Origin: a virus
Taxonomy: Duplodnaviria > Heunggongvirae > Uroviricota > Caudoviricetes
IMG/VR virus record: IMGVR_UViG_2654587772_000002
Strand: one strand, 5' to 3'
DNA length: 64,000 bases
Part shown: positions 1,678 through 62,810 of the stretch, piece after piece
How positions within the stretch are numbered: the first letter of the stretch is position 1
Layout of the letters: every line of letters begins with the position of its first letter
Notes under the pieces: generated by a model
Told to the model about the DNA's origin: nothing
The model's database searches: none
What the model saw: only the letters and a program-made list of their open reading frames with translations
Position numbers and translations under genes: made by a program

Positions 1678-1704
1678 TAAAACGGGGCGCTCGGCCCCTT
1701 AATA

Positions 1705-2745: not shown

Positions 2746-2754
2746 TTTTCTTCC

Positions 2755-3036
2755 TCACATCCAGCCACGAAGTTGATGCTCAACAGCAACCACGTATTCA
2801 TCGAATAATGACGATATTTGCGAATCATTAATGATGCGCACGTTTACAAAATATCCGTCTTCCTTAACACATACCGGTTCGCCATCTTCAGTCAGTTCTC
2901 CGGTTTCTTTGTACACGTTACCTATCACGTCAATAAGAATATCATCCTGCATCGACTCGTCATCATAATAGCCAGTGCTATCCATAAAGGCCGAAAAGTC
3001 GGCCCTGTCGGCAAATTTGAGTGTTAAATCTTTCAT
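2755..3036 (-). CDS. hypothetical acidic protein (possible tail-fibre accessory)
   Basis: 93-aa ORF directly downstream of stf, 1-nt overlap. Confidence 0.3.
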   Translation of the reverse strand: MKDLTLKFADRADFSAFMDSTGYYDDESMQDDILIDVIGNVYKETGELTEDGEPVCVKEDGYFVNVRIINDSQISSLFDEYVVAVEHQLRGWM

Positions 3037-5411: not shown

Positions 5412-5422
5412 ATCCACTCCAC

Positions 5423-5448
5423 AAAAAAGCCCGCCTGAACCGGCGGGC
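5423..5448 (-). terminator. rho-independent terminator downstream of lom
   Basis: GC hairpin GCCCGCC..GGCGGGC followed by a T-run on the minus strand. Confidence 0.55.
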
Positions 5449-5475
5449 TGTCATAACACTGTGTTACCTGGCTAA

Positions 5476-6075: not shown

Positions 6076-6099
6076 AATTACCTCTCGCTTTTCTGCAAT

Positions 6100-6123
6100 A
6101 AAAAAGGCGTCATTTCTGACGCC
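6100..6123 (-). terminator. rho-independent terminator between J and lom
   Basis: hairpin GGCGTCA-TTTC-TGACGCC with T-run on the minus strand. Confidence 0.5.
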
Positions 6124-6142
6124 CGTATTGGGGTTATAAAAT

Positions 6143-9100
6143 TCAGCTGATACTGATGCCTGCGGTGGCTTTCTTCATCACCACAACCAGCAAATCGCTG
6201 ATACTTGCTGTGGGATACCAGCCATTTACCCACCATGCTGATACCGAAAACTCCAGTGTCATTACGCCACTGCCTGCAGGCATATCAATAACACCCGTGT
6301 AAATCAGAGTATTATCCAGAGCCGTTCGGTTATAAATTTCAGCCCCGTTTTTCTTCACTATCAGGCGGCATGACGAATAAGTATCGCTATTCTCCCGTTC
6401 ATGTCTGGCACCGCTGAAAGCCACCGCCGGGATAACAATTTGCCGGTCAAACGGCTGATCGTCATAAACCCTGACGGTAATGGTCCCTGATGGCCACCGT
6501 TCCGGTGCACGGGAGTCACGGGGGAAAGCTTTGCCCACTGTTTTAACGAGATCGCCTTCAATCTGGTTCGCGGACAGTTTTCCCAGAACCCGGCAGTTCT
6601 CGTTAATCGTGACGTTGTTGAGCGTCCCGGAGTTCGCATTCACGTTACCGCTGATATCGGCATTTTTTGCCGTCAGCCGCCCGTCCGGTGTCAGGGAAAA
6701 TGCCGGAGGATTACCGCCGCTGGTAATGGTGGGAGCCGTCAGATATTTCAGGAACACTTCATTCATAAATATCTGATCGCCCTGACCAACAAACATCGGC
6801 TTTGTGTTGCCATTCGCAGGATTAATCATCGCAATCCTGTCCGCCGCCAGCAGCACCTGACTCTGCATACCGTCAGGGGTATTCTCAATACCGGCACCAA
6901 TACCCGCGATATAAAGGCGTCCGTCCTGCATCTGCTGCAGCTTCACAGCCCACATGCTGTTCAGGTTATTATTTGTATCAACCTGAACCTTCTGTATCTG
7001 CTGAATTGCCGCACTCTGGTCTTCCAGTTTCTTATTGACGGTCTGCGTGATTTCATTGCTGACATCCGTAATGGACGTCCTGATTTCAGCCAGGTCAGGC
7101 GCAAGCTGACCGTTATCAATCTGCGTCCACAGCTCCTGAGCCAGATGGCTTTTCCCTATCTCTCCTTTGAAAAAATCCAGATAGCCGGATGCATCATCAC
7201 TCGGCTGGCCAACAGCCTCCACAAATGCCGATTTGCCAACGGTGTTCACACTGCGGATGTAAAAATAATAATCATGGCCCGGTTTGATATTGATACTGGC
7301 GGCTATCCAGTACAGCGCCGTGCCAAGATAGCGGGCTGTGGTTTCAACCTGCCTGATATCGGTAATCCGCTTTTCCGAGAACCAGAACTCAAACTGTACC
7401 GTCGGGTCATAAATGGCAAGATGCGGCGTGGCGGTTATCTGAAAATAGCCCGGCGTCAGCTCAATCCTCGACGGTGCTGCCGGTGCGGCAATCCGGAACG
7501 ATACCGACGCCGCATCGCCCTGCTGCCCCCACGCATTTACCGCCCGGACTGTCAGCCTGTAGTTCCCCAGCGCCAGTTGCGTGAAGCGGTATGTGGTTTC
7601 CGTCGTCCGGGCCGTGCTGACCAGCCGCTCACTGCCGTCGTCCGCTGTTACGGTCAGACGGAGCAGGAAGCTCACGCCCTTCACCACCTTCGGTGTGTCC
7701 CATCGCGCCAGCACCTGATATTCCCCGCTGTCTGCAGTGACTTCTGCGGTCAGGTGCTGCACCGCTGGCGGCGTGACACCATTCACCGTGCCACTCTGTT
7801 CGCCGTCAAAGTGCGCCCCGTTATCCACGATGGCCTCTTTTTCCGGCACATGCTGCACGGCGGTGATGGCATACGTGCCGTCGTCGTTCTCACGGATACT
7901 CACGCAGCGGAACAGGCGCTGGCGCAGCGTCGGCAGCTTCAGCCCCCATACGCTGTATTCAGCAACACCCTCAGGAACACGGCTCACTTTTACCTTCACG
8001 CCGTCGTTGACGGACTGAACCTCCACGCTGACCGGATTGCCACTTCCGTCAACCAGGCTTATCAGCGTGGTACCGGAGGATGGCAGCGTGATTTCACGGT
8101 CGAGCGTCAGCGTCCGGGTCTGGCTGTTCACCGCCAGCACACGACCACCGGTGCTGATACCGGCATAGTCATCATCGCAGATTTCAATAACATCGCCCGG
8201 TACATGGCGAAGCCCTTCTGCGCCGACGCTGAAATCCACGGTCTGCGTCTCCAGCAGCTCCGTTTTAATCAGCCACAGCCCGGCGCGGTGTGCCTGCCCC
8301 CGGCTGGTACAGCCAAAGGCATCCATCTTCGTAACATTACGACCGTAACGGGCAATGGCCTGCGTATCTTCAACAAGCTCTGTCGCCGTCTCCCAGCCGT
8401 TGTCCGGGTCAATCCAGTTCACCTCAACGGCATTATGGCGGTCTTTCAGGGCGCTGAAGCTGTAGCGGAACGGCGCGCCATCATCCGGCATCACCACATT
8501 ACTGCGGTTATAGGTCCACGCCTTATCCGACGGTCGGTCCTGCACGAACGTCAGCGTCTGCCCGTTCCATACCGGCATACAGCGCATCGCCGAGCAGAAA
8601 TCACTGAGAACGTCCCACGCCTTGCGCTGTGTGGTCAGGTACGCATTACAGGTGATGCGCGGCTCCGTGCCGCCAAAGCCGTCCGGCACTGACTGGTCGC
8701 AGTACTGGCCGATGACATACAGCGCCCATTTGTCCACATCCGCCGCACCAAGACGTTTCCCCATGCCGTAGCGCGGATGGGTCAGCATATCCCACAGACA
8801 CCAGGCCATGTTGTTGCTGTATGCTGGCTTAAACGTTCCGTCCCAGATACCGCTGTATTGTCGCGTCTGCGGGTTATAGTTCGACGGCACCTGCAGAATG
8901 CGCCCGCGAAGATGATAATTACGACTCACCTGCTGGCTGCCGAACTGCTCCGAGTCCACCTGTACGCCGACCAGTGCCGTGTTCGGGTAGCACTGTTTCA
9001 CATCGATGATTTCGGTGTATGACGACCAGAGCGTTTTGTTCTGCAGCTGGTCTGTGGTGCTGTCCGGCGTCATCCTGCGCATCCGGATATTAAACGGGCG

Positions 9101-9622
9101 CGGCGGCAGGTTATCCACCACCACCGAGGCCAGATACTGCGAGGTGGTTTTGCCTTTAATGGTGATGTCTTTTTCCGTCACCCAGCCACCGTTACGCTGT
9201 ATCTGAACCAGCAGGCGGACTTCCGACGGATTCCGGTCCCCCTTTGAGGTGGTTTCCACCAGTGCCTGCACACCGAAGGTAAAGCGCAGACGGTCGATGT
9301 TTGCAGACGTGATGGTCCGGGTAATCGGCGTGTCGTACTTCACTTCCGTACCCAGCACCGTCTCGGAGCCGGAGGATTCAAACCCCTCCGGCGGTGTCTG
9401 CTCCTGCTCACCGGCACGGAACACCACCGTGACACCGGAGATGTTGGTATTCCCCTCAGTGTCCAGCACCGGCGTACTGTTCAGCAGCACGCTTTTTAAT
9501 CCATCCACCGGACCTTCAACCGGCCCTTCGCTGATGGCATCGATCACACTCAGCAACTGCGTGGACTTCAGGTTGTCCTTCGCTTCGCGCGGGGTATGCC
9601 CCTTACTGCTTCCTTTACTCAT
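6143..9622 (-). CDS. J: host specificity protein J (central tail fibre / tip attachment protein)
   Basis: 1159 aa; N-terminus [31 protein letters not shown] as in lambda J; followed by lom. Confidence 0.9.
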
Positions 9623-9682
9623 TCCTCACGCTCCATAAATGACAAAACCGCCCGCAGGCGGTTTCACATAAAACATTTTGCA

Positions 9683-10354
9683 TCAGCGACCAATCACCAC
9701 AACCTGACCACCGTCCCCTTCGTCTGCCGTGCTGATCTCCTGAGAAACCACGCGTGACCCCACGCGCATTTCCCCGTACAGAACAGGCAGAACATTGCCC
9801 TGGGCAACCATGTTATCCAGTGAGGAGAAATAGGTGTTCTGCTTACCGTTATCCGTTGTCTGTGTACGGGGAGTTCTGGCTTTCGGTGCCAGCATCTGCG
9901 CCACACCACCGAGGACCATACTGGCACCGAGAGAAAACAGGATGCCGGTCATACCACCGCCCCAATGGCTGCCCCCCCATGCTGCAAGGGTGGCTCCGGC
10001 GGTAAAGAATGATCCGGCAATGGCGGCAGCCCCCCAGGACAATCTGGAATACGCCACCTGACTTGGCCCCGGCGACTCTGGAACAATATGAATCACAGCG
10101 CCATCAGGCAGAGTCTCATGTAACTGCGCCGTTAACCCGGACGTGCTGACGTCCCGCCCGGCAATCCGTACCTGATACCAGCCGTCGCTCAGTTTCTGAC
10201 GAAACGCCGGGAGCTGTGTGGCCAGTGCCCGGATGGCTTCAGCCCCCGTTTTCACACGAAGGTCGATGCGGCGACCAAATCGTTGTAAATCCCCGTAAAG
10301 GCAGATGCGCGCCATGCCCGGTGACGCCAGAGGGAGTGTGTGCGTCGCTGCCAT
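9683..10354 (-). CDS. I: tail assembly protein I
   Basis: 223 aa, start MAATHTLPLASPGMARICLYGDLQRFG as lambda gpI; immediately upstream of J. Confidence 0.8.
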   Translation of the reverse strand: MAATHTLPLASPGMARICLYGDLQRFGRRIDLRVKTGAEAIRALATQLPAFRQKLSDGWYQVRIAGRDVSTSGLTAQLHETLPDGAVIHIVPESPGPSQVAYSRLSWGAAAIAGSFFTAGATLAAWGGSHWGGGMTGILFSLGASMVLGGVAQMLAPKARTPRTQTTDNGKQNTYFSSLDNMVAQGNVLPVLYGEMRVGSRVVSQEISTADEGDGGQVVVIGR

Positions 10355-10991
10355 TTGTCGGTGTACCTCTCTCGTTTGCTCAGTTGTTCAGGAATATGGT
10401 GCAGCAGCTCACCGTCACCACAGTAAATGGCGGCATGATTCGGCACCGATGAACCAAAACAGCACAGCAGCACATCGCCCGGCTGCGCCGCTGACAACGC
10501 ACCTGATACAGCCCTGTGGCCTCCAGATTATCCAGATAGAGATTCTGACCGTGACGCCACCAGTCATCCCCGCGATGAAAATCCGGCATCTCAATCCCCG
10601 CCAGATGATAAGCATCCCGGAACAGCGTGTAACAGTCCGTCACCCCGTGCTCAAAGCGCCGCCGGTGAGATGCGGCACACAGCGGAACTTATGAATCGCC
10701 CCCCGGCAGACCAGCCACCACGGCAAATCACTCTGCACCTGCAGCCGCCGGTCAGTCTCACTCAGCCAGGGCAGACCACCGGGGTGGCTGTGGACCAGCG
10801 CCACAATCTCACCCTGCATTTCTGCCTGCAGCCAGTCCTCCGGAGCCATCCGGAAATAATCCTCCGGCTCACCGGAAATATTCACGCGGGAAATATCTTT
10901 CCCCCTCCGGCGTGCTTACCACGAAGCCGCACGACTCCGCTGGCGCACATCGCCGGGCGTGCGCCAGAATCGCTGATTCTGTCTGTGTCAT
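10252..10991 (-). pseudogene. K: tail protein K (MPN/JAMM plus NlpC/P60), disrupted by frameshifts
   Basis: start MTQTESAILAHARRCAPAESCGFVVSTPEGERYFP then frame breaks; reading frame resumes in three separate ORFs (10640-10885, 10380-10643, 10252-10497) carrying HSHPGG and the NlpC-like C-terminus. Confidence 0.7.
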
Positions 10992-10996
10992 GGGAT

Positions 10997-11195
10997 TTAC
11001 TGCGAAAGTTTGTTAATGGAAAGGAAGCCGCCAAAGTTGCCGACGTTATTGCGAAACTTACAGCCACTCAGGCATTTGCTGCATTTATCCTTCGTGATAT
11101 CGGACGTCGGCTGGTCATATTCATCCGCGACCGCCGGACCGCTATAACCGCACTCATCGCCGCGATAGGTCCAGGTGCAGGTGTTGTTTGTTGAC
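10997..11195 (-). pseudogene. L: 3' fragment of tail protein L
   Basis: only C-terminal ...TCTWTYRGDECGYSGPAVADEYDQPTSDITKDKCSKCLSGCKFRNNVGNFGGFLSINKLSQ is present; homology ends abruptly near 11195. Confidence 0.6.
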
Positions 11196-11199
11196 TAGC

Positions 11200-13100
11200 T
11201 TTGATGCAACCCAGGCCACAGGGGTGCTCTGAACAGCGGCATCGGCAACCTTACCAGGAAGCTCTTTTGCGGCATTCCATAGATTACTACCAGCCTCTTT
11301 AATGTATTTTCCCGGGTTCTTAATGAAATCAATTGCACTATCAATTGCATCACTGAAAACCTTTTTCAGGTTATCGACAGTAAAGAAGTCTTTGATGGCG
11401 TCTAATTTTTCGTTCAGACTCTTGGTTGTGTCACTGAACCAGGCTGAAATAGCATCGCCAATCTTGGCTGTGTAATCGTTGAATGTTGTGGATATGGTGT
11501 CACCAAGGTTAGAAATATATGTTTTCTAAATTGGTAATCCCACTATCAATGGCCTGGGCAATACTTTCCGTCGAAAATGATTGCAACATATTGCCGATAT
11601 CCTCAAATCCAAGTGATTTGAGAACGCCACCAATGGCATTGCTAATACCAGATACCAGTCCTCCCATATCGAGAACGTTAGCCAGTGTATAAGCCGCTTT
11701 TTGCTGAAAAGATGGATCTTCCCCATCCTTTAAGCCCAAAGGTCCGACGTTGTGCTTCTGTATCATTCCAACCGGTTTACCGCATCATAGATACCTCCAG
11801 CCACCGTGCCGACTAGCGGAATTGCGCGTAAAAGCCCCCTTTGCAAAAGCCTTAACACCTAGTTTCTCCAATCCCTTAGTTGCAAGTTTTCCGGCACCGC
11901 GAGTAGCCAATTCGCCAGCTTCTTTGGCAGCAGCTTTTTTCCCACCAAAGCCCAATAAGCTTGCAACTTTTTTTATACCTAAAGCGCCTAGTGCCATCGA
12001 GCCAACTTTCTTTAGTGCCCCACGGCAAAAAATAAGGGAAGCAATACCACCGGCCCCCTTCCCTAACAGGGCTAAATAATTTGGACAGCAAGCCGCCCTT
12101 CTTTTTCCCGGTGTTTTTGGCTATCTGATCAAGGCGCTGAGAATCTTGTCATTGCCCTCTTTAATTTCGCTGGGTCTGATCCTGAAGTTCCTGAACCGTC
12201 CGTTTTTGGGTGTTAACCTGAACGACATCGGGCACTACTTTGCGATTTACGCCTAAAAAAACCTTTTTCTACGGCTGTTATCGTCATTGCCACGAATCAC
12301 ATCGGCAATTGACTTTCTGGCACCATTAAGCGAACCGCCAACTTCTTTTGATATTCCGCCAAGCTCTTTCCTGCTGCCCACAATGGACCAGCAACGGCAT
12401 AACCTAAAGCATCGACGGCACGAGTCTCTGAAGGGTTACCTATGCCTTCAGCTTACTTTTGACAGTTTTTTTAATAAACCCGATTCAGCATTTAGACGCT
12501 CATCATCCTCTTTGCGCTAGCTTTTTCAGCACGTTCAGCACGGGGCATCTTCCGCTGCGGCCTTACTCCCTGACTTCCCAATAAAACGACCACGCGCATC
12601 GCGTTGGTTTTGGCTTTTTTGCGCCACCGCCTTTTTGACCGAACATTTCGCGAGCGTGTTCGGCTGCTTCGGTCCGTTGTGCCTTTACATCCTCTGGTAT
12701 AGCCTTCCTGCGTCGTTTTTTACCCTTTTGGTGTGGTTGATTTGGCCCGCTGTTTCCTGTTGAGCAACATCTTCCTGAACTACACGAGAAACGTCCCCTA
12801 AGTTAAGCCGTTTCATTGCCTCAACAAATAGGGTCCACTGATGGCGCATTGGCCACAAAGTCTGGCCGTGAATTTTCGATTGTGCGATTTAATGCCGACA
12901 CACTGCGAGAGACAGGATCAAACAGTTGCAACGCGCCCCCCTTTCAAAATCTTCAACAGCTTCCCGGATACCTGCAAGCTCTTCCAGCTCTTTTGCGCTG
13001 GCGGTTTCAACTGTCCTTATAACATCGTCAATGTTGGCGTTTTTTCGTTCCATGATCTTATCGCCTACCGTTTCGGTTTAAGTTTTTCTTCCAGTTTCTC
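11200..13100 (-). pseudogene. fragmented tape-measure-like gene remnant
   Basis: several short minus-strand ORFs in different frames with Gly/Ala-rich segments (GLVSGISNAIGGVLKSLG; GAGKLATKGLEKLGVKAFAKG); no intact long ORF. Confidence 0.35.
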
Positions 13101-13135
13101 CAACAGGAAAAACGCATAGGATTTCAGTAAGCCTT

Positions 13136-13621
13136 TCAGCGTCCTGAATCGGTATACCCCCATACAAAACCAGGTTGGACACTAAGGTCTGATAGCTTTT
13201 CAATCCCCACCTGTGGAATGAAGTCGGTAGCCCGAAAGGGCACCCACAGACGGGTATATGCACCCTCTGTGGACTCCTTTTTATCCTGATTTGGGCATTT
13301 ATGCGGCGGGAGACGAAGACGCATTTCACCTTTATCGATGTAGCACGGCAAACCATGTTCGAGCTTTTCATGAGCCAGTCGGATGTGTGCCGCCAGCTTC
13401 ATAAATTCAGTATCAATGGCCATCCGTTTAATCGTTTCATAACGACGCTCAGCCTGATCTTCACGAGTACCGCTAACATCGTTATAAAGCTCACACTGAT
13501 AAGCGAATTCCCAAAAAACGCAAATCAACGATCGCTTCTTTGAATTCCGCGTCGTCTTCAGGTGGCAATGCTGCACGGCGCATCTCCAGCATTTCCATTG
13601 GCCCCAACCATCAAGCGGCAC
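13136..13621 (-). CDS. hypothetical protein (overlaps the 3' end of the upstream ORF)
   Basis: 161-aa ORF with non-ATG start; uncertain. Confidence 0.25.
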   Translation of the reverse strand: MPLDGWGQWKCWRCAVQHCHLKTTRNSKKRSLICVFWEFAYQCELYNDVSGTREDQAERRYETIKRMAIDTEFMKLAAHIRLAHEKLEHGLPCYIDKGEMRLRLPPHKCPNQDKKESTEGAYTRLWVPFRATDFIPQVGIEKLSDLSVQPGFVWGYTDSGR

Positions 13622-14021
13622 GATACCGCCATTGATAAGGCACTCCCTCTACAGACACCTCAATATCGTCAATGAACGGTTCCGCTTCCAGGACCTGGAT
13701 ATCTTCAGCCAGGGCATTCATATCGCAATCGTAATAATGCTCTTTACCGCAATGTTTACAGGTGTAGGTGAATGTCTCGACCGGTGTTTCACGGGAGCCG
13801 GTAAATATCCACCATAACGCGGTAATCCGGTCCTGCGCCGTCCATGTCAGGGGATCATGTTTCGCGGGTTCAGCCAGCAAGGCTTTTAAATACGCCGTTG
13901 TCTGTTGTTCTTGTTCCTCCGGTGTTATCGAGTTGAAACGCATCGCATCAGCAATATTTGGCTGACGGAACTGGATCAATTCAGTTGGCCGCGATGGTAG
14001 CGGGAAAAGAGGTAAAAGCAT
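13611..14021 (-). CDS. hypothetical protein (position suggests tail assembly chaperone)
   Basis: 136 aa, located just upstream of the tape-measure remnant. Confidence 0.3.
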   Translation of the reverse strand: MLLPLFPLPSRPTELIQFRQPNIADAMRFNSITPEEQEQQTTAYLKALLAEPAKHDPLTWTAQDRITALWWIFTGSRETPVETFTYTCKHCGKEHYYDCDMNALAEDIQVLEAEPFIDDIEVSVEGVPYQWRYRAA

Positions 14022-14192
14022 CCTTGCTCCTTAATTCAAAGAGAAAAGCTAAAGCCCAGAAGGGAAGCCAAAGAACTTGAGGATTGGTTAAACGTGCTGT
14101 GCAATGCGAAGGTCATTGGGAATGACTTAAATTCCGTAACCTGATCCCGCGCATAGGTGACATCTCCGGTAGTGACCGGGAATACCGTCATC

Positions 14193-14648
14193 TCATTTTC
14201 CAGGTTTGGTTAAACCGGAGGACAGCAACCGATAAATACGCACATTGAGCAAATATTTAGATGGTATGTTCCCGGTGCCGTCAGGATTGATCACCCGACT
14301 TTTTGCCGTCTTAAACCAGTCCAAAACGAGGCCATCAACGGTATCCCTGACCATCATTGTTATCTGCCCTGGCGAACGCTCCGTTGGCTGAAGGATATTC
14401 CCTCCGCCGATTTTAATCGTTTCATATTCGATGCTGTAATCGTGGTAGGTAATGTCTTTAGCAAAGAAGTCTGCCCCCTCCAGACCATCAACTTCGACAG
14501 AGAACTGCCATCCTTGCGCGAACAGCATTTTGTTCATGATGATTGACGTCAGCTTACCAACTTCCCGTTCACCAACGCCGGAGCCAAATAATGTCGTCGT
14601 TAATGCCGAAGATACATAAGACTTTACTGAAGCAACATTAAGCCCCAT
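14193..14648 (-). CDS. putative virion / tail protein
   Basis: 151-aa ORF in the tail gene block; no confident motif. Confidence 0.3.
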   Translation of the reverse strand: MGLNVASVKSYVSSALTTTLFGSGVGEREVGKLTSIIMNKMLFAQGWQFSVEVDGLEGADFFAKDITYHDYSIEYETIKIGGGNILQPTERSPGQITMMVRDTVDGLVLDWFKTAKSRVINPDGTGNIPSKYLLNVRIYRLLSSGLTKPGK

Positions 14649-14658
14649 ATCAGCCCCC

Positions 14659-15249
<591 letters not shown>

Positions 15250-15369
15250 TTAACCGATTCTACGAGTAGTCATTTGTTCATCGTGTAACAATATTGCCAT
15301 TGGATAAAATAACTACAGCGCCCACAAACGGGCGCATTCTGTACATGACTTGAGATATATTATGTTGCA

Positions 15370-16152
15370 TTAAAGCTTTTCAAGATAATCAGCCAAGCCT
15401 TTCGCATTATCGGCATAGTATTTTGTTGCATTTACTATTATTGACTCATAATACGATTTGCATTCTTTCTTCCATGGAGTGCACGAATTTATTTTTTCCA
15501 TATCGTTTTTATTTTTAGAAATACCAACAAGCATAATGTACCCGATAAATCTTGTTGTCAACGCGCCAATCGGTAGCGTTCTATTCTCGGCTACTGTCTT
15601 TATTAAATTATCTTTATATTGAGGAATGAAATAGTTACCAACATATTCCAGATTTGCTTCAATAGGATTAAGATAGAATGAGCAATACTGAAAAGTGGGA
15701 ATTTGTCTAAATTTAACACCAGAACATAATGAATAAATTTCTTGTTCTTTTGTTAGTTCTTTTACTATGTGACTGTTGTCAGTCGTATCTTCTAATCTTA
15801 TATAGTTCAAAGACGATTTTGCTTGTCCTGGGCTTACAAGCTCAATAACAGGATGCCCATTAGACAATGTTATTCTTTCGATCTTACCCCGAATTCTAGA
15901 AGTTTGACTCCATTCATCTAAGGCTGCTATTTCATTTTTCTTGAATGAATCAACAATATCTGATGGCAAGCTAAAAACAGTAGCTTTCGTATTCATAGTA
16001 TATGCAAGCGAAGCAGATACCATATAGTTTCTGACTAAATTATAGTCCTTCTCGGAAACAGAATACTCATTAGGAATAGCTATTGAATTTGCAAATGAAT
16101 AGCTGCTAACAAAAGCAAACGGCAACAATAGTTTAAACATTAATTTTTTCAC
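15370..16152 (-). CDS. secreted hypothetical protein (moron)
   Basis: 260 aa; signal peptide MKKLMFKLLLPFAFVSSYSFA; AT-rich coding sequence unlike its neighbours. Confidence 0.55.
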   Translation of the reverse strand: MKKLMFKLLLPFAFVSSYSFANSIAIPNEYSVSEKDYNLVRNYMVSASLAYTMNTKATVFSLPSDIVDSFKKNEIAALDEWSQTSRIRGKIERITLSNGHPVIELVSPGQAKSSLNYIRLEDTTDNSHIVKELTKEQEIYSLCSGVKFRQIPTFQYCSFYLNPIEANLEYVGNYFIPQYKDNLIKTVAENRTLPIGALTTRFIGYIMLVGISKNKNDMEKINSCTPWKKECKSYYESIIVNATKYYADNAKGLADYLEKL

Positions 16153-16181
16153 TTATCACTATCCTTCGAATATCTTTACAT

Positions 16182-16818
16182 TTAAAGCCCGTCTTTGCAG
16201 AGACTAGTTGCTGTAGCGGTAAGTTGTGAAACAGGAATGTTAGGGCTGTCCCGTTTCATTAGAGCTAACTTAGTTTCAACACATTTTTTTATTCCTGGGG
16301 TCAAATTATCAGTATCATTTGCATCAGCACTCCCTAAAGCCCTCCGCTCAAGCGCACCTTGAGTATTTTGAGTGCGCATGCCACGCGCATTCAGAAATTG
16401 TTCGCTATTTATATAGCTACTTAAAGATTTTCCCTGATCTTCTTTGCGAATTTTTCCATTAGCCACTAATACAGCCCAACTAGGAATCATCATATCTGGT
16501 GCAGTTTCACAATACGCTACCATCTGATTAAAAGCCGAACGGTTATATTCATTAAGATTAGGATTAAGAAATTTCGAATAATACATTTTTGCAGCATCAT
16601 CTGTCGCAACCTTATACATTTCTTGCTGAACCATTGCTTCAGACAAACTTAAGCGCGTCATATCATTCTGGAGAGCTTTTTTCATCTTGCCGTCTTGACT
16701 GACAGTGAAACCGTAAACGTGCCCAAGGTATTTCGTGTAGTCGGTACAAATCTCCTTTACACTTGATGCTGCATTAACAGTCCCAGTCATAAATAATAAC
16801 GGTAGTAATAGTTTTCTC
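16182..16818 (-). CDS. secreted hypothetical protein (moron)
   Basis: signal peptide MRKLLLPLLFMTGTVNA from the internal ATG; AT-rich; Cys-containing. Confidence 0.55.
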
Positions 16819-16915
16819 ATTATAACCTCACCTGCCTTATAACTCATTTAGGGTACATATTTTCGCCTTTAAAAAAAGAGGTTATTAGATCCAATTGTGC
16901 ATTCATTAAACAAGC

Positions 16916-16932
16916 AATGCTCTAATAAATTT
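16916..16932 (+). promoter_or_regulatory. C1-repressor-operator-like site (AATGCTCTAATAAATTT)
   Basis: matches the 17-bp P1 C1 operator consensus ATTGCTCTAATAAATTT with one mismatch; lies upstream of the antirepressor region. Confidence 0.45.
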
Positions 16933-17246
16933 GTATTTTTAAGTCACGAATGCTATCTTTGCGCATCATATTGACCTTTTAATCGTTCAGGCTTATATTT
17001 CCGCTGTCGTAGCAAATTCTGCGACCGGGTTTAGCAGCCTGAATGATTGTGCGGACAGCCGCAGATATCCGATATTGCGGTATTTTTGTGTCCGTAAAAC
17101 CGCGTTACGCCCAAATTATGGTGGGGCGTGATGGGGAGGCTTCGGCCTGCTGGTTTCACAATCGCCAGTCTGCTAACCCCGTCACGTCCTGCCACCTGTT
17201 TAGCAGCGGGTAGCAGGTTGTTAAACCTGATTGTGAGGCCGTAACT

Positions 17247-17468
17247 ATGGTTAATGCCAATCCTTGCGCACGCCCAGAATTCATCTGGCGTTTCTATTCC
17301 TGTAAAAAACACCACTATCACTTCGTTATCGCAGCAACTGAAGACGAAGCACGCTCTCAATTGCCTGATGGCCCCTGCATTTTTACTGCCCGTTTTTCAA
17401 CTAACTCGCGCAATTCACTTAGTTACTGGAACCTCCCCTTCTCTGCCGACGTTCAGGGGGGTTTATGA
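17247..17468 (+). CDS. small protein overlapping the antirepressor start (icd-like position)
   Basis: 73-aa ORF ending in a 4-nt overlap with the ant start; assignment is by position only. Confidence 0.3.
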   Translation: MVNANPCARPEFIWRFYSCKKHHYHFVIAATEDEARSQLPDGPCIFTARFSTNSRNSLSYWNLPFSADVQGGL

Positions 17469-18856
17469 AAAAACCTCTCGTCACCCGTAATGAAATAGCC
17501 GAAGCGATCGCCCTGCATACAACCTGTATGCCGACACGGGAGATCCCCGGCGCAATTGCCAACTATTTCATGATAACCAGGCGTTTTTATACCCGAACAG
17601 ATAAGGCTGTGATCAACAAGCTACTGATAGCCGAGATCAGGGATTATTTGATTGAACAAGGACGTCTACGTTACGCAACAGTGGCAGCAGAAATGAGAAA
17701 GGAGGCACATAGAATGACCGGTAATAATTTAAATGTTGAAAAAACAGTACCTGTTACGTCAGCTACGCCAGCACCAGCCGTGAATGTCATCCCCAACACC
17801 GGAGACACAATCGACAGCCAAACATTGTTGAAGATGGTCAATGAGGCACGTAAGTTATGTGGAGAACCAGAGGTTAGAAACAATAAATTCATCGAAAAAA
17901 TACTCGATGAACTTGAAGGTGAATTTTACACAAAAAGTGCAAAATCCCATGGCACAAGGGCCGGGCGCTCTTTTGAGGTCATAACCATGACCTATAAACA
18001 AGCCCTGCGAGTCGCCGCACGCGAATCAAAAGCGGTCCGCCGTTCGCTACATACCATGATTCAGTCATTGGAACCTATAAATGTAGAAAATCAGCCTGAT
18101 GAAATTCCCGTTCTGGAATGGCAGGGAGTACGCGTCGTGACAACCGAGACTCTTGCTAGAGGGTATGGCACTACACCTATTCGTATTCAGCAGAACTACA
18201 ATCGCAATGAAGAACGATTTGTAGAGGGTAAACACTTCTTTAAAATCAAAGGAGATGAGATAAAAAGTTTGCGACTATCTTTTAGCGAGTTGCAAATTTC
18301 CCCCAAGACCAGATCCTTAATACTCTGGACCGAACGCGGAGCGGCACGCATGTCTAAGATCGTAGACACAGAGCAAGCGTGGGCATTCTTTGAAAAACTG
18401 GAAGACAGCTACTTCCGGCAAAAAGAACAGCAACCGGTCACAATCCCCCAAACATTACCAGAAGCTCTACGCCTGGCTGCCGAGTTGGCAGAGCAGAAAA
18501 TGCAGTTGGAACAACAGCTGGTGGCCGCAGCCCCTAAAGTAGATTTTGCCGACCGGGTATCAGTGGCTAATGGAATCCTGATCGGGAACTTTGCAAAGGT
18601 CGTTGGACTTAAGCAAAACGCCCTTTTCTCATGGTTGCGCCAGAACGGCATTCTCATGGCTTTTGGTGCGCGCAAAAACGTACCGCGCCAGCAGTACATT
18701 AACGCCGGGTATTTCACGGTGAAAGAAGTGGTGCTGGATGATGAAAATGGCTACCAGATACGGCTGACGCCCCAATTAACGGGTAAAGGCCAGCAGTGGT
18801 TAACTCGCAAGCTACTTGATGCTGGTTTGTTAAAACCAGTGGCGTCCTTGTCTTAA
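17465..18856 (+). CDS. ant: phage antirepressor (ORF6N-type N domain plus KilAC C-terminal domain)
   Basis: 463 aa; C-terminal APKVDFADRVSVANGILIGNFAKVVGL...GYFTVKEV block typical of KilAC antirepressors. Confidence 0.75.
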   Translation: MKKPLVTRNEIAEAIALHTTCMPTREIPGAIANYFMITRRFYTRTDKAVINKLLIAEIRDYLIEQGRLRYATVAAEMRKEAHRMTGNNLNVEKTVPVTSATPAPAVNVIPNTGDTIDSQTLLKMVNEARKLCGEPEVRNNKFIEKILDELEGEFYTKSAKSHGTRAGRSFEVITMTYKQALRVAARESKAVRRSLHTMIQSLEPINVENQPDEIPVLEWQGVRVVTTETLARGYGTTPIRIQQNYNRNEERFVEGKHFFKIKGDEIKSLRLSFSELQISPKTRSLILWTERGAARMSKIVDTEQAWAFFEKLEDSYFRQKEQQPVTIPQTLPEALRLAAELAEQKMQLEQQLVAAAPKVDFADRVSVANGILIGNFAKVVGLKQNALFSWLRQNGILMAFGARKNVPRQQYINAGYFTVKEVVLDDENGYQIRLTPQLTGKGQQWLTRKLLDAGLLKPVASLS

Positions 18857-19094
18857 CGTATTCAGACCAGGATTTGCCATAAATTACAGGCATGTGTACG
18901 ATATGCCCAACCCTGTTTTTCAGGGGAGGCGCAACGTTATGCGGGGGTTATGAACTCCTGGATGCGTAGCCTCCAGACAGAAAAAACCCTCGCTACAACG
19001 TTGCATGGAGGCAACCAGCGAGGGCATTCCTTATGTCTGAACAACAAGAGGATAGCCGCAAGCAGTTGCTGTTGCAAGTATGCGGAGCTTCGTA

Positions 19095-32078: not shown

Positions 32079-32999
32079 TTATGGATTGCGCTTATGGATC
32101 TGGAAGCCGATTTTCCTGCCGTTTTTTATCTCTGAAAATTTAAGATATTCAATAGCTTCCAAATCTTTCATGGCTTTTCTGATAACGCTATTTTGCACGC
32201 TAACGGATGATTTGAGATTAAGCCTCGCTCTAAGGCGCTCAATGCTGACAGGTGCCGGGTTGGCGGGTAGAGCCTCAAAGAATGTATACAGTACCTTGGC
32301 CGTCTCTTTGCGCCCTAGTTTATCCAGCATCTTCAGCTTCAGGATTCGCTTATAGTCAACATAGTAAAGTTCAGATAGCTGTTTCTGCGGCTGGATCTCG
32401 ATAACATCAAGCTCGGTATTCAGGCTGCTATATGCCAACAAGTTGACGTTAATGTTATTGAGATGACCTTTTGCCGCCGGGAAGCGGAATTTGACAACTG
32501 TCTGCTGAATGCGTGTCAGAGAGTCATCAATACTTTTACGGAACGCCTTTGAAAGGCGCTTACGTGGATAGCCGCATCGATCGGCAAACTCGGAGAATGG
32601 CAGGGTGATTATGCCGTCATCATCAGGTGCGTAGTCAAACAACGCGGAAGTTATGCCCACCCACACCTTAAAATCAGTATCCATATCCAGGCGTGGACCA
32701 TGAATTTCAATTCCCTCATAGCCTTCCTGCTCAACAATTTTGAGGCTTGATAGTTCTTCAGTTGCGTTCGTTGTGTTTGTTGTAACTGACGATCCGCGAC
32801 GTAGCGCCACATTGGTAGATTTTAAGGTTGGCACAAACACACCTAAGCGCAACAAAGCGATGGGTTGTATAGTGCTGTTGTTATTGGGCTTCAGGCTGTG
32901 GATTTCTCCTGTATTTCCTGCAACTTCTTCAACGCTAAGGAAGCCTTTACTTTCTTCCGGCATCACGGTTTCTCCATGTGTGGCGCGGCCTGACGTCAA
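32079..32999 (-). CDS. repA: plasmid replication initiator RepA
   Basis: 306 aa; blocks QPIALLRLGVFVP, GPRLDMDTDFKVW and C-terminal HKRNP resemble P1-type RepA; flanked by iterons. Confidence 0.8.
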   Translation of the reverse strand: MTSGRATHGETVMPEESKGFLSVEEVAGNTGEIHSLKPNNNSTIQPIALLRLGVFVPTLKSTNVALRRGSSVTTNTTNATEELSSLKIVEQEGYEGIEIHGPRLDMDTDFKVWVGITSALFDYAPDDDGIITLPFSEFADRCGYPRKRLSKAFRKSIDDSLTRIQQTVVKFRFPAAKGHLNNINVNLLAYSSLNTELDVIEIQPQKQLSELYYVDYKRILKLKMLDKLGRKETAKVLYTFFEALPANPAPVSIERLRARLNLKSSVSVQNSVIRKAMKDLEAIEYLKFSEIKNGRKIGFQIHKRNP

Positions 33000-56022: not shown

Positions 56023-59000
56023 CTATATTTTTCCGCCTACGCCTTTAAACTTCTCAATAAACGAGACGATTTTCTGGAAAACTGCCTGTTTTTTCGTTTT
56101 ATATTGCGGATTTAACGGACTAAGTTTTGGTAATGTTTCGTTTAATTCTGTGCCATTTTCGGTGGCGTATTCGCGTTTTAAAGACGTGCGAATATAGCGT
56201 TTTGCTGCATCTTCATTGAGATTTTCTTCTTTTATCAATGCTTCTGCTTCACGTTGCTGTTCGCGTTGAGCAAACGTAAAGAATGCGTCAATGATGCTGG
56301 CTTTGTCCGGTAAATCATCCAGGTTCGTTTGCTGAATAAAATCGACCACCAGGCCCTCTTTAGCACGGTTCCCTAGGCTTGAACGAATTAAGCGTTTGAC
56401 CTCTTCGATCATTTCGCCCTTGCCTTTATTTTGTCTGTTGTGTTCGAAAATAAGTCCAAGGATATAATCCAGGTTTATTTCCTGAGACTTCAGCAAATCG
56501 ACCTCAAAAACTACGTCATCCCAGTCAGTGGTTGATTTCTCTTTTTTCTCAGCTTCTTTCTCACGGCGCTGCCAGTCGCGAATATCGTTATAGGCAGAAC
56601 GATAATCCTGAATCTTGCGATCAGCAGGGAGACGAATTGTTTGCAATTCAGCGAACTTTTCATCATCCACATAATGTTCTGCTTTGAATTTTTCTACCGC
56701 AACAGGATCGCTAAGATCGATTTGTTGCAGGGCTTTTAGCGTGGCAAATTCATCATAGTTTTGCAGGATGTTCTCGGCACGCAGGTATTCGCCAAACAGT
56801 TTAACGAAGTCTTTCTTCTCTTTTTCACTTTCAATACTGGTAGGGTCAGGGAACCGTTGTTCCAGTTCTGAAACTACTGTCATGAAGCCGCGTTTAGCTT
56901 CACCTGTAGCAGCATCAGTAAAGCCTTCCATATACTCTGTATAACTCTTTTCTAACACCACATTTTTGGTGTTTTTGTCACCAAACAGCGTTATGGCATC
57001 AATAGTTGAGCGTTCCAGATCCCGGAAAGTGACGATATTACCGAAGGTTTTAGTTGCATCATAAATACGGTTGGTGCGGGAAAATGCCTGCATCAGGCCG
57101 TGAAAACGCAAGTTTTTATCGACGAATAGCGTGTTCAATGTTGGAGCATCGAAGCCGGTTAAAAACATCCCCACGACAATTAGCAGATCGATATCCTGAT
57201 TTTTAACCCGCTGGGCTAAATCACGATAGTAGTTCTGAAAACCGTTACTGTCGGTGCTAAAGTTAGTTTTAAAATGGCTGTTATATTCACGAATTGCAGC
57301 GTCCAGAAACTCTTTAGCACTGCTGTCCATTGCGCTGGTATCAAAAGTTTCATCGGAAATTTCACCAATGGCATTTTGTTCTTCATTGGCGGCAAAGGAG
57401 AAGATTGTCGCAATACGCAGCGGTTTATAGGTAGCCGATTTATTAGCGGCTTCTTCTTGTAACCGTTTAAACGTCGCATAATAGGCTTTCGCGGCATCCA
57501 CGCTGCTCACTGCCAACATAGCATTAAAACCTTTTGAGCCAGGGAAGGTACGGTGAGTTTTCTGGCGGAAATTATTCAGAATATATTGCGTGATTTCCTG
57601 AATACGCATAGGATGAAGAAACGCCTGCTGATTTTCAGCCGCACTTAGTTTTTTCTCGTCAGTTTCTGTCTCTAAAGACTTAAACTGTGGCCGCACATCG
57701 TTGTAGTCCACCTTGAATTTGAGCACTTTTTCGTCACGAATCGCATCGGTAATTACATACGAATGCAATTCACGACCAAATACGCTGGCGGTTGTTTCTG
57801 AGCCTAAGGCGTTTTCCGGGAAAATAGGGGTGCCGGTAAAACCAAACTGATAATAGCGTTTGAATTTCTTCTTCAGGTTTTTCTGCGCTTCTCCAAACTG
57901 GCTGCGGTGGCATTCATCAAATATGAACACTACTTGCTGATTATATACAGGCAGGTCGCTTTCTGCTTTCATCAGGTTATTGAGTTTCTGAATAGTAGTG
58001 ACGATAATTTTGTTATCGTCCTTATCCAGATTTCGTTTAAGGCCTGCGGTATTTTCCGAGCCGTTGACGCTGTCTGGCGAAAAACGCTGATATTCCTTCA
58101 TGGTCTGGTAATCGAGGTCTTTTCTGTCGACCACAAAGAAGACTTTATCAATAAAGTCCAGCTCTGTTGCCAGACGCGCGGCTTTAAAGCTGGTAAGGGT
58201 TTTACCAGAACCGGTAGTGTGCCAGATAAAGCCACCGCTTTCGGGGTTAGACCAGTTTTTCGCTTTATAGGAGCTGTTGATTTTCCATAAGATTCGTTCG
58301 GTGGCGGCAATCTGGTACGGTCGCATCACCAGTAGCGTCTGACTACTGTCAAAAACGCTGTAGTTCACCAGAACATTCAGCAGAGTATGTTTCTGGAAAA
58401 AGGTAGCGGTAAAGTCTTTGAGGTCTTTAATCAGCGTGTTGTCTGATTTCGCCCAGTTCATGGTGAAGTCAAAACTGTTTTTATCGCGCTTTGTCGTGTT
58501 GGCAAAATAACGGGTATCGGTGCCGTTAGAAATGACAAACAGTTGCAGATACTTAAACAGGGAATTTTCGCTGTTAAAACTCTCTTTACTGTAACGATGT
58601 ATCTGGTTGAAAGCCTCACGAATCGCCACCCCGCGTTTTTTTAGTTCGATTTGCACCAGCGGTAAACCATTAACCAGGATCGTGACGTCATAACGGTTAG
58701 CATGAGAACCCGTCTGTTCAAACTGCTGGATAATCTGCACCTTATTGCGCATGAGATTCTTTTTATCTATCAAATAGATGTTCTCAAGACGCTCGTCATC
58801 AAAAATAAAGTCGCAAATATAGTCGATATGGATTTTACGGGTCTTATCCAGAATGCCATCACTCGGGTTGTCCAGATACTGCTCCGTGAAACGCCGCCAT
58901 TCGCTGTCATTAAACACCACACCATTGAGGTTCTGAAGCTGTTCCCGAACGTTGGCCAGCATCGCCGACTGTGATTTTACGGGTATAAATTCATAGCCCT

Positions 59001-59139
59001 GATTTCGCAGGTCCTGAATCAGTTCCCGTTCCAGGTCCGATTCACTCTGATAGCTGTCGCCTGTTTGCTCAGCTTTGATGTACTTATCAAGAACGATAAA
59101 GTTATTGGATTCAGCAATGGTGTGTGTCTGATGAGTCAT
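56023..59139 (-). CDS. hsdR: type I restriction enzyme R subunit
   Basis: 1038 aa; helicase motifs (TGSGKT, DECH), N-terminal nuclease region. Confidence 0.9.
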
Positions 59140-59261
59140 AGCGCATCCTTTGTGCCGTCTGGCAAGGGCCGGAAGGGGGTTAAGGGTGACTTCCAGCGTG
59201 TAAAAAAATAGCCTATATACTGACCGGGTGTTAAGGTGGCCCGGTCGGTAGCAATGGTCAA

Positions 59262-60473
59262 TTAATTACTGACAGTTTCAGGTTTCGGGAAACTGAACAG
59301 TAAATCACGGTAGTACTCGTATTGTTTCTGGCGCAACTCGATTTCACGCGGGAGACCTTCGGTGATGGAGTTGGTCAGGGTGTCGAACTTATCGAGGATA
59401 AAGGCAATTTTTTGTTGCTCATCAATCGATGGTAAAGGAATAGATAAACCATCAATGTTATTTGCTTTAAGATAACCTTGCCCTGAATTGTTTTTTACTG
59501 ACTTAAAGTAAAATTTCATTCTTGGTGAGTCGAAGAAATGCAGAAAATATCTAGGGTGAAGTAATTCCTCATTCAACCTGATTAGGTACATGTTTTGACC
59601 GTAAAAATCAGGATCGAGACATTTTACTCGAGCAATCTCACCAATAGTACCAATCATGCTTATAAGAAAGTCACCTTTCAAGATCGGTCTATTTTTGGAG
59701 ATGCTCAAAAAATCGTCCCGGGAAATATGCTTAACTCTTTCAAAATCGATGTTCCCACCACTAATATTCTTTGAAGTGACATATGGAATTTCACCATTAT
59801 CATCAAACTTCGGAGTTGCGGGCATAATCCAAAATTTATCTACTAGCACCTCCTCCAAAGTCTTCCACTCAACCTCACCCTCTTTAAAACTCAACAACTG
59901 GTCGCGATAATAGTTGTACTGTTTTTTACGCATGTTAAGCTCAGCGGTAAGCTCAGCGGTAAGTGCAGTAAATTTATCCAGAATCCGAACGATTTCAGAC
60001 TGGATGGCAAGGGATTTTTCCGGATTATCCGGGCAGGGGATTGGGATTTTTTTTTGAGAATAATTACTAATCCATTGGCGTTTATGGTCTCCCTCTGCGA
60101 ATTCACTTGGTAATGTATTGAGCCAATAGTAAACATATTTCAGTAAGGTTTTATTATTATCACATGATGTAACCATTTTCATGGCCGATGATTTTGCCTT
60201 AAAGTCAAAATCCACCCATTTATTAGCGGTGGTGAAATCATCAAAAATTATTACAGGTGCCTTTGATGCCTGGTAAATACCATGAGTCTCATTTGTGTAT
60301 CCAAGAATAAATGTTTTTCCGGCAGTAAGAACCGGTATGGTATATGTGTCGTGATAATCTTTTGCTTTTACCAAATACTTTGTTGGCTGTTCATATTTGG
60401 TTATTTCCCCCAATGGCAACCACTCAACTTCAACCCCATCCAGCAATTTTTCCAGATAACTCAACTCGCTCAT
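59262..60473 (-). CDS. hsdS: type I restriction-modification specificity subunit
   Basis: 403 aa; two target-recognition domains separated by conserved repeats; overlaps the hsdM stop. Confidence 0.85.
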
Positions 60474-62032
60474 TTCTGCACCTCGCAGCCTTCAATTTCA
60501 GCCACAATCGCATCAATATCTTTACGCAACTGGTCGATTTTGCTGACCGTGGTTTTCAGCTCAGCATTTAGCTCAGCAATATCGATAGTTTCGCGGTTAT
60601 CTTTCACTTCTACATAGCTGCTCACTGACAGGTTATAGTCATTCGCGACAACGGCCTCAAACGCGACAGATTTTGCCAGATGGGCAACATCTTCCTTGCT
60701 GGAAAATACCTGCATAATTTTTTCGATATGGGCATCGGTCAGGATGTTGTTGTTAGTCTCTTTTTTGAACAGTTCGCTGGCGTCAATAAACTGAACTTTG
60801 GTATCCGTTTTATGTTTAGACAGCACCAGAATATTTACGGCAATGGTGGTGCCAAAGAACAGGTTCGGTGCCAGTGAAATCACGGTTTCGACATAGTTAT
60901 TGTCAACCAGATACTGACGGATTTTCTGCTCCGCTCCGCCACGGTAAAAAATGCCCGGGAAGCAGACAATCGCAGCACGACCTTTGGCAGAAAGATAGTT
61001 CAGCGCATGTAATACAAACGCAAAGTCAGCTTTGGATTTGGGGGCCAGAACGCCAGCCGGGGCAAAACGTTCATCGTTAATCAGCGTCGGGTCATCGCTG
61101 CCAATCCATTTCACCGAATACGGCGGGTTAGAAACGATGGCATCAAACGGTTTTTCATCTCTGAAGTGCGGCTCAGTCAGTGTATTACCCAGCTTGATAT
61201 CAAACTTGTCGTAGTTGATGTTGTGCAAAAACATGTTCATACGCGCCAGGTTATAGGTCGTATGGTTGATCTCCTGACCAAAAAAGCCTTCTTCGATGAT
61301 ATGGTCATCAAACTGTTTTTTAGCCTGCAACAACAGCGAACCGGAACCTGCTGCCGGGTCGTAGATTTTGTTAACGTGGGTCTGGCCGTGCATTGCCAGT
61401 TGTGCAATCAGCTTAGAGACGTGCTGCGGTGTAAAGAACTCGCCGCCGGACTTACCGGCATTCGCCGCATAGTTAGAAATCAGGAACTCATAGGCATCAC
61501 CGAACAGGTCAATCTGATGTTCGTTGAAGTCACCAAGGTTTAACCCTTCAACCCCTTTCAGAACCGCAGCCAGGCGGGCATTTTTATCCTTAACGGTGTT
61601 ACCCAGGCGGTTACTGGTGGTATCGAAATCAGCAAACAAACCTTTGATGTCAGCTTCTGAAGGATAACCGTAAGCAGAACTTTCGATAGCAACGAAGATG
61701 CTGTTTAAATCTGCATTCAGTCTGTCATTGGTATTTGCTTTCGCCGCTACGTTGCAGAAAAGCTGACTTGGGTAGATGAAGTAGCCTTTGGTTTTGATGG
61801 CATCGTCTTTAATGTCATCAGTAATTACGCTGTCATCCAGTTTCGCATAACAGATACTGCCATCACCGGCTTCAATATAGCTGGAAAAATTTTCGCTGAT
61901 AAAACGGTAGAAAAGTGCGCCCAGAACGTATTGCTTAAAATCCCATCCATCGACCGAACCCCTGACATCGTTAGCAATTTGCCAGATTTGACGATGAAGC
62001 TCTGCACGTTGTTGAATACTTGTCATTTTCAT
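60470..62032 (-). CDS. hsdM: type I restriction-modification methyltransferase subunit
   Basis: 520 aa; AdoMet motif [10 protein letters not shown] and catalytic NPPY. Confidence 0.9.
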
Positions 62033-62177
62033 CCACTTATTTCAGGCTTATGTAATTGGATGTGATTCTACAACAACTTGGTGGCTTTAACAGTTCGGAC
62101 ATTAGGCTATGAATGACCTGCCTAGAGTTTTGTTAAGCCGCAAAGTGCTGGCGCTTTATGCCTGTGAAGTTTATAAT

Positions 62178-62199
62178 TGTGTACACATAACGAGTACAC
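62178..62199 (+). promoter_or_regulatory. phd-doc operator-like palindromes
   Basis: TGTGTACACA and GAGTACAC immediately upstream of phd. Confidence 0.45.
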
Positions 62200-62208
62200 G
62201 AGGTGTTT

Positions 62209-62430
62209 ATGCAATCCATTAACTTCCGTACCGCGCGCGGCAACCTTTCTGAAGTGCTCAACAATGTTGAGGCCGGGGAAGAGGTTGAAATCACCCGCAG
62301 AGGCCGTGAGCCAGCAGTAATTGTCAGCAAGGCTACTTTCGAAGCCTACAAAAAAGCGGCGCTGGATGCTGAATTTGCATCCCTGTTTGACACCCTGGAC
62401 TCCACCAACAAGGAACTGGTTAACCGATAA
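62209..62430 (+). CDS. phd: antitoxin Phd
   Basis: 73 aa from ATG; [32 protein letters not shown] matches P1 Phd. Confidence 0.9.
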
Positions 62431-62810
62431 TGAGGCATATATCACCGGAAGAACTTATTGCGCTTCATGATGCGAATATAAGCCGCTACGGCGGCCTGCC
62501 TGGCATGTCAGATCCGGGCAGGGCAGAGGCCATTATCGGGAGAGTTCAGGCCAGAGTTGCCTACGAAGAGATCACCGACCTTTTCGAAGTCTCCGCCACC
62601 TACCTGGTGGCTACAGCGAGAGGGCATATATTCAATGATGCCAATAAGCGTACCGCGCTAAACAGTGCGCTGCTATTTCTACGCCGTAACGGGGTGCAGG
62701 TATTTGATTCACCTGAACTGGCAGACCTTACCGTAGGCGCTGCGACTGGCGAGATATCTGTATCTTCTGTCGCCGACTCGTTACGTAGATTGTATGGTTC
62801 TGCGGAGTAG
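62430..62810 (+). CDS. doc: toxin Doc (Fic-fold)
   Basis: 126 aa; overlaps the phd stop; HIFNDANKR Fic-like motif. Confidence 0.9.

Follow-up and report, generated by a model that had tools for sequence, protein, structure and literature searches.

Why does a P1-like phage-plasmid carry a full set of type I restriction-modification (R-M) genes directly beside the phd-doc addiction module, and does this position mean that the addiction module maintains the restriction genes? We addressed this question for a 64,000-nucleotide stretch of viral DNA (Caudoviricetes; IMG/VR record IMGVR_UViG_2654587772_000002), which is referred to as the window in the following. A preliminary description, made from the sequence alone, had placed hsdM-hsdS and a separately promoted hsdR between a HAD phosphatase gene and phd-doc, and had interpreted the R-M system as cargo in a variable hotspot that would also be stabilised by the neighbouring addiction module. 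Based on open reading frames (ORFs), Pfam matches and comparisons with related elements, we consider it very probable that the locus is an intact type IC R-M system of the EcoR124I family, which occupies a known variable slot of a P1-like phage-plasmid beside the phd-doc operon.

The hsd genes stand in place of a block of P1 genes

The minus-strand trio hsdM-hsdS-hsdR fills the interval between pap, which is the last conserved P1 gene to the left of the variable region, and phd-doc. Both the ORF list and the Pfam matches agree with the genes and coordinates that had been given for this interval. The genes and the limits of P1 homology are as follows.

55252–55758, plus strand: pap, encoding P1 Pap, a HAD/PNKP-type phosphatase (Pfam HAD_PNKP, E 7e-12), collinear with P1 pap
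55947/55948, no strand: left junction, where P1 identity ends at position 84482 of P1 (NC_005856), as determined by blastn and base-by-base alignment
56023–59139, minus strand: hsdR, 1038 amino acids (aa), with Pfam HSDR_N, SWI2_SNF2, T1R_D3-like and EcoR124_C (E 1.9e-71)
59262–60473, minus strand: hsdS, 403 aa, with Pfam Methylase_S in two stretches
60470–62032, minus strand: hsdM, 520 aa, with Pfam N6_Mtase (E 2.4e-121) and HsdM_N
62132/62133, no strand: right junction, where P1 identity resumes at P1 position 87970, the humD stop codon, just upstream of Pphd
62209–62430, plus strand: phd (ATG at 62209; the ORF is also given from 62203), 73 aa, with Pfam PhdYeFM_antitox
62430–62810, plus strand: doc, 126 aa, with Pfam Fic/DOC

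The genes hsdM and hsdS overlap by 4 bp (ATGA), and a spacing of 122 bp separates hsdS from hsdR. Both flanks, pmgP-ppp-pmgQ-pmgR-pmgS-pap on the left and phd-doc-pdcA-pdcB on the right, are 98–99% identical to phage P1. Phd is identical to P1 Phd at 73 of 73 residues and Doc to P1 Doc at 125 of 126; the overlapping phd and doc genes behind Pphd, the autoregulated promoter of the P1 module, have the layout of a type II toxin-antitoxin operon and would be expected to act as one. The Pphd region equals that of P1 from position 62133 on, except for two substitutions close to the junction.

The left junction lies 4 bp past the stop codon of a small ORF (see below) and immediately before the start of P1's pmgT. 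Between the two junctions, the 6.2-kb hsd block stands in place of the 3.5-kb pmgT-pmgU-pmgV-upfMNO-hot-lxr-humD block of P1. A search of the window and of 150 kb of the source record gave no trace of pmgT-humD. A relocation of the displaced genes was ruled out by this search, and their absence is a true loss. We conclude that the hsd block substitutes for 3.5 kb of P1 genes and is no simple insertion.

Both junctions coincide with features that are annotated in the P1 record. The left one is the end of misc_feature 84263..84482 (EcoDXXI flank) and of misc_feature 84399..84482 (“plasmid R124/3 sequence downstream of hsdR gene”), and the right one is the edge of misc_feature 87969..88647 (“conjugative plasmid sequence upstream of EcoDXXI hsd locus”). 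With DNA of the P1 Op88 region downstream of hsdR, phd-doc upstream of hsdM, and junctions at P1 84482 and 87969/87970, the locus has the structure of a P1-flanked type IC locus.

Variability of the slot and distribution of the hsd genes

Among related phages and phage-plasmids, vB_EcoM-673R5 (673R5) and phi456 carry the same hsd scaffold with the same junctions and are 96–98% identical to the window outside hsdS. P1, P7, SJ46, RCS47 and D6 have no hsd genes at the slot, and P1 has pmgT-humD there. JL22 contains a third gene set straight after pap (gp99-gp101, adenine methyltransferase, ea22, eaA), which is followed by pmgV-humD.

The frequency of the two main forms was estimated by comparing 601-bp junction probes with 5,426 complete Escherichia coli (E. 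coli) genomes, counting matches that covered at least 80% of the probe. The junction of pap with hsdR occurred in 219 genomes and the P1-type junction of pap with pmgT in 203. On the other side of the slot, hsdM was joined to phd in 652 genomes (~12%), and humD to phd, as in P1, in 488. The slot thus contains hsd genes about as often as the genes known from P1, and these numbers attest to the success of the module. The excess of the hsdM-phd over the pap-hsdR junction is due to an hsd-phd-doc cassette on conjugative IncF plasmids. This IncF/R124-type cassette starts at window position 55864, within the small ORF, and extends to ~63297 (74%-coverage class). In plasmid pA0086 the order is IS1, 84 bp of P1 DNA, hsdR-hsdS-hsdM and phd-doc-pdcA, with IS5 farther on, and the left end of this cassette type is the left end found in R124/3. 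Thus, hsd and phd-doc travel together, and the slot is polymorphic and not fixed.

The presence of the same hsd genes at this position in all relatives had been named as a finding that would speak against cargo in a hotspot; the genes are absent from P1, P7, SJ46, RCS47 and D6, and the two forms of the left junction are found in similar numbers of genomes. The comparison of relatives supports the hotspot interpretation, but the variability was already known, and the hsd genes were exchanged for other genes rather than added. The pmgT-humD segment is variable region 8 among the eight highly variable regions of P1-like phage-plasmids (PMC9603915), and pSvP1 has been described as carrying “type I restriction modification ... 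substituting pmg genes” (PMC6906374).

In Klebsiella, a type IC hsd locus that is ~82% identical over hsdR-hsdS-hsdM occurs without P1 flanks on many ~110-kb plasmids and in the phage record vB_KpnS_p4727. Some of these loci carry an annotated AAA-family ATPase gene inside.

Identity and integrity of HsdR and HsdM

HsdR residues 1–1038 pair with residues 1–1038 of EcoR124I HsdR (PDB 2w00/7bst; 2289 bits), with ~10 substitutions within the printed part of the alignment, and HsdM residues 1–520 pair with residues 1–520 of the EcoR124I M subunit (PDB 7bst_D) with nine substitutions. Both proteins are full length and, end to end, ~98–99% identical to EcoR124I, which assigns them to the type IC family by sequence, the type I families as such being defined through complementation and cross-hybridisation. 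Separate genes are predicted for R (an SF2 motor with a PD-(D/E)xK nuclease), M (a gamma-class N6-adenine methyltransferase) and S (two recognition domains with conserved helices between them), as is characteristic of type I systems.

HsdR contains the nuclease residues D151/E165/K167, the Walker A motif GSGKT (310) and the DECH motif (408), and HsdM contains the NPPY motif (302). In RefSeq, none of hsdR, hsdS and hsdM is flagged as a pseudogene, and several other genes of the same element are. Non-functional hsd genes had also been listed as a finding at odds with the preliminary description. Judging from three full-length ORFs, intact motifs and the lack of pseudogene flags, the hsd genes look functional.

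A mosaic HsdS and its predicted target

The specificity subunit combines segments of different origin. In the alignment with EcoR124I HsdS (7bst_A), residues 1–204, which comprise the N-terminal recognition domain and the central helix, differ by only two substitutions, and the sequence TAELTAEL at aa 172–179 contains two copies of the TAEL repeat of type IC systems, as in EcoR124I. The C-terminal recognition domain (residues ~205–350) is unrelated to its EcoR124I counterpart, and the last ~50 residues are again nearly identical, with the final ~40 being identical.

The N-terminal domain of EcoR124I reads GAA, and the number of TAEL copies sets the gap between the half-sites: two copies go with N6 in EcoR124I, and three copies with N7 in EcoR124II, EcoDXXI and EcoprrI (PMC3874165). 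Hence, the predicted target of the window HsdS is GAA-N6-(new 3' half-site). Because its C-terminal domain is unrelated to that of EcoR124I, which reads RTCG, the target must differ from that of EcoR124I. As a more modest novel reading, this hsdS allele may specify a yet-uncharacterised sequence made up of GAA, N6 and a new half-site. PDB relatives (1yf2 and others) were considered as a guide to the C-terminal half-site and discarded as too distant.

Homologues of the C-terminal domain were 99% identical in a few E. coli and Klebsiella entries and at most 70% identical in diverse bacteria. Only 5 of 72,556 PLSDB plasmids contained the DNA of this domain at full length, indicating a rare allele. 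Its carriers include a Cronobacter plasmid and a type IC scaffold with no more than ~83% identity elsewhere, and such scatter would be the signature expected if recombination exchanges the domains. The window, 673R5, phi456 and pA0086 have hsdS alleles that agree only in the N-terminal ~20 residues and in the central and C-terminal helices; both recognition domains differ among these four alleles, and the TAEL number is 2 or 3. Carrier strains would be expected to restrict incoming DNA, with a specificity that has to be worked out separately for each allele.

The hsdM gene of phi456 is separated by two additional ORFs of 981 and 291 bp, one of which bears the annotation “baseplate hub protein”, from a shortened hsdS, which encodes 356 aa and lacks the usual N-terminus (phi456 stretch 8432–9699). 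The specificity gene of this phage appears rearranged or interrupted.

Transcription signals within and beside the hsd block

Four further features bear on how the hsd genes may be transcribed.

59140–59261, minus strand: the 122 bp separating hsdS and hsdR, which contain a stem-loop with a T-run behind it and a weak sigma-70-like site, and which may hold a promoter of hsdR's own
55979–56007, no strand: perfect 11-bp hairpin (CTTGCGGGTTT / AAACCCGCAAG; z = −3.5) beyond the 3' end of hsdR, towards the left P1 junction
55857–55943, plus strand: small hydrophobic ORF of 28 aa (MNTAFKIIMAAIYFWLFSITFGGIVAHG) in P1-homologous DNA, read from the sequence
55758–55774, plus strand: C1 operator OpmgT (Op88) with the PpmgT promoters, ATTACTCTAATAAATCT versus ATTGCTCTAATAAATCT in P1, with one mismatch

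The structured element after the hsdS stop codon has a fold z-score of −2.8. The sigma-70-like match in the gap (TTAACA-18-TATTTT, from 59234 to 59205) agrees with the consensus at 9/12 positions and comes from a scan that performed at chance level. In E. coli type I loci, hsdR is generally transcribed as a separate unit (PMC3510504), and the gene order hsdM-hsdS-hsdR with the 122-bp gap is present in the window. The proposal that hsdR has its own promoter is thus borne out in part: the gap, the stem-loop and the general type I organisation lend weak support to a separate unit, and the promoter itself does not gain from the scan.

The left junction and the hsdR stop codon are 75 bp apart, and this interval includes the hairpin at 55979–56007, whose T-run is misplaced for a terminator on both strands. 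A terminator-like hairpin with a T-run, in minus-strand orientation, is located at 55826–55810 in P1-homologous DNA, past the end of pap and ahead of the small ORF. It would be suited to end transcripts that run in the direction of hsdR; it is present in P1, too, without a minus-strand gene nearby, and could be due to chance.

Although pmgT is gone, OpmgT and PpmgT have been kept and are now directed at the 3' end of hsdR. Two other phages with hsd genes, 673R5 and phi456, have retained the Op88 operator as well. The small ORF downstream of it has no coding-sequence annotation in the P1 record and overlaps two annotated ORFs, Orf75 in phi456 and gp98 in JL22. Convergent C1-controlled transcription into hsdR is possible with this arrangement. 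PpmgT is retained in every hsd-bearing P1-like element examined, and, if active at induction, it could lower HsdR in lytic growth through antisense or convergent transcription. We regard this scenario as highly speculative; if it were true, restriction activity would be tied to the lysogenic state of the phage-plasmid carrier.

Proposed function of the locus and role of phd-doc

Given the near-identity to EcoR124I and the general knowledge of type I systems, the locus is likely expressed and active. The genes hsdM and hsdS would be co-transcribed and, through their ATGA overlap, translationally coupled, and their products would form an M2S methyltransferase of a bipartite site. HsdR, expressed from its own unit after the 122-bp gap, would join this complex to form R2M2S, which would translocate and cleave unmodified DNA. 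At the level of the phage-plasmid, the hsd block would be an allelic replacement of the pmgT-humD block at fixed junctions. The unit of hsd and phd-doc with stubs of P1 DNA has likewise been captured between insertion sequence elements on IncF plasmids of the R124/pDXX1 type, and phd-doc would stabilise whichever replicon carries the pair.

The suggestion that phd-doc would stabilise the hsd genes holds insofar as the whole replicon is stabilised. Adjacency is unnecessary for this effect; what it provides is co-transfer, as in the IncF cassette. A type IC system can become established in a naive host without killing it (PMC12707154), and therefore the hsd genes are unlikely to be an addiction module themselves. 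Phage phi456, which has the same replacement, produces myovirus particles and forms plaques on MC1061 (PMC10967188). Hence, the replacement does not abolish phage function.

Alternative explanations

Several points weigh against an intact, expressed system with the predicted target. The source assembly is an early PacBio assembly of low coverage with several frameshifted genes, and single-base errors in the hsd genes are possible. The search for homologues of the C-terminal domain of HsdS gave only unnamed fragments, none with a specificity name. Promoter-like sites in the region numbered 14, compared to 12.9 ± 3.8 in shuffled sequences; since this count equals the chance expectation, the scan matches were set aside as evidence. 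The same scan found no consensus promoter upstream of hsdM. The lack of a convincing hsdM promoter would fit a decayed or silent remnant, either restriction-negative or reduced to a methyltransferase, that is carried passively through its linkage to phd-doc, as would the frameshift flags on other genes of the same P1-like element in RefSeq and the apparent disruption of the phi456 hsdS by extra ORFs. However, all ORFs of the window locus are full length and their frames undisrupted despite the low coverage, the nuclease, ATPase and methyltransferase motifs are intact, and it is the biochemically active EcoR124I to which HsdR and HsdM are so closely related. The scattered frameshifts elsewhere fit the errors of 28x C2-chemistry PacBio data and are probably sequencing errors. 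Decay is thus a very improbable explanation, and we retain the reading of an intact type IC system.

The direction of the exchange could be the reverse of the one proposed, with the hsd-bearing state being ancestral and the pmgT-humD block of P1 being the incoming cargo. The equal frequency of both states (219 versus 203 genomes) is compatible with this order, and so is the minus-strand hairpin at 55826–55810, which lies in the shared flank and is found in P1 without a gene that needs it. Terminator-like matches are, however, common by chance in this region (13 found versus 7.2 expected). Moreover, the G+C content of the hsd block (0.432, and 0.384 in hsdS) is below that of the P1-like backbone (0.477), the flanks (0.47–0.50) and the alternative block of P1 (0.465), and close hsd relatives occur in unrelated contexts, namely the Klebsiella phage-plasmids (~82%) and chromosomal prr-type loci. 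We consider an ancestral hsd block unlikely. The replicon itself raises a further question, because NZ_CP007393.1, a record labelled as the “chromosome” of E. coli ST2747, matches the window at 100% identity. Window positions 1–17245 correspond to record positions 2231000–2248238, with hslJ-ydbJ-nifJ-ompN-uspF-pinR and lambdoid tail genes including a gpJ truncated at ~17004, and the lambdoid DNA runs straight into the ~92-kb P1-like phage-plasmid. Taken at face value, this continuity would mean that the element with hsd and phd-doc is integrated in the chromosome, and the addiction logic would then be inapplicable to this copy. However, the P1-like element has its own complete repA-parAB set, duplicated gpJ-lom-tail-fibre segments lie on either side of it, the genes at both joins (~17000 in the window and ~2139050 in the record) being truncated, and there are differences of up to 90 kb among the three ST2747 records. 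According to the genome announcement, “a complete gapless chromosome” was obtained by arranging ~14 HGAP scaffolds from 28x PacBio C2 data along a reference map (PMC3983296). The “chromosome” being a concatenation of these scaffolds, integration was set aside as improbable; the chromosomal position is probably a scaffolding artefact, with a plasmid scaffold spliced in.

Other features of the source record

Outside the window, at record positions 2165660–2170167 (local 43073–47580), a 4.5-kb gene with an Eco57I-type R-M methylase domain, which is flagged as frameshifted, is located at the place of the type III res-mod genes of P1. Beside it lies a metabolic or regulatory insert (ester cyclase, GlxA-family regulator, MBL-fold hydrolase). 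A similar segment has been noted in pJIE250-3 and in the ST2747 record (PMC6906374). The P1-like element also contains two icd-like/antirepressor (KilAC) modules of the immunity-I type, one at window position ~17245–19000 at the lambdoid join and the other between pacB and c1 (local source-record coordinates 32593–34051). C1-operator-like sites were found at window positions 16916 and 19410.

Comparison with known type IC systems

Type IC hsd loci flanked by P1 DNA were reportedly described by Tyndall et al. in 1997 (cited in PMC12707154). The arrangement in the window is already known from that year and from the GenBank annotation of P1, and it is ordinary, being present in hundreds of sequenced E. 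coli genomes. With the linkage of hsd, P1 DNA and phd-doc published, annotated in the P1 reference, and located in a published variable region, the locus carries little weight as a discovery.

Its closest counterparts are EcoR124I and EcoR124II, encoded by the IncFIV plasmids R124 and R124/3, which have the same gene order (hsdM-hsdS-gap-hsdR), an HsdR of 1038 aa and an HsdM of 520 aa. EcoR124I also shares with the window the HsdS N-terminal domain, the two TAEL repeats and the conserved C-terminal region, and R124/3 has the same P1-derived DNA downstream of hsdR (P1 84399–84482). The window system differs from EcoR124I in the C-terminal recognition domain (~aa 205–350), which is unrelated to the RTCG-reading domain, and from the R124 loci in its genomic context, which is a complete P1-like backbone and not an F-type plasmid. 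EcoDXXI of pDXX1 has identical flanks, with P1 84263–84482 downstream of hsdR and P1 87969–88647 (phd-doc) upstream of hsdM, but other recognition domains (TCA N7 RTTC) and three TAEL repeats (PMC3874165). The hsdS genes of 673R5 and phi456 differ from the window allele in both recognition domains. EcoprrI, a chromosomal system with the anticodon nuclease gene prrC, belongs to the same type IC family and has three TAEL repeats instead of the two in the window; chromosomal matches are abundant at about 80–93% identity. An embedded gene, prrC-like or other, was excluded for the window locus, where hsdM and hsdS overlap directly. Across these systems, type I specificity diversifies on a fixed scaffold through the exchange of recognition domains and through changes in the number of TAEL copies.

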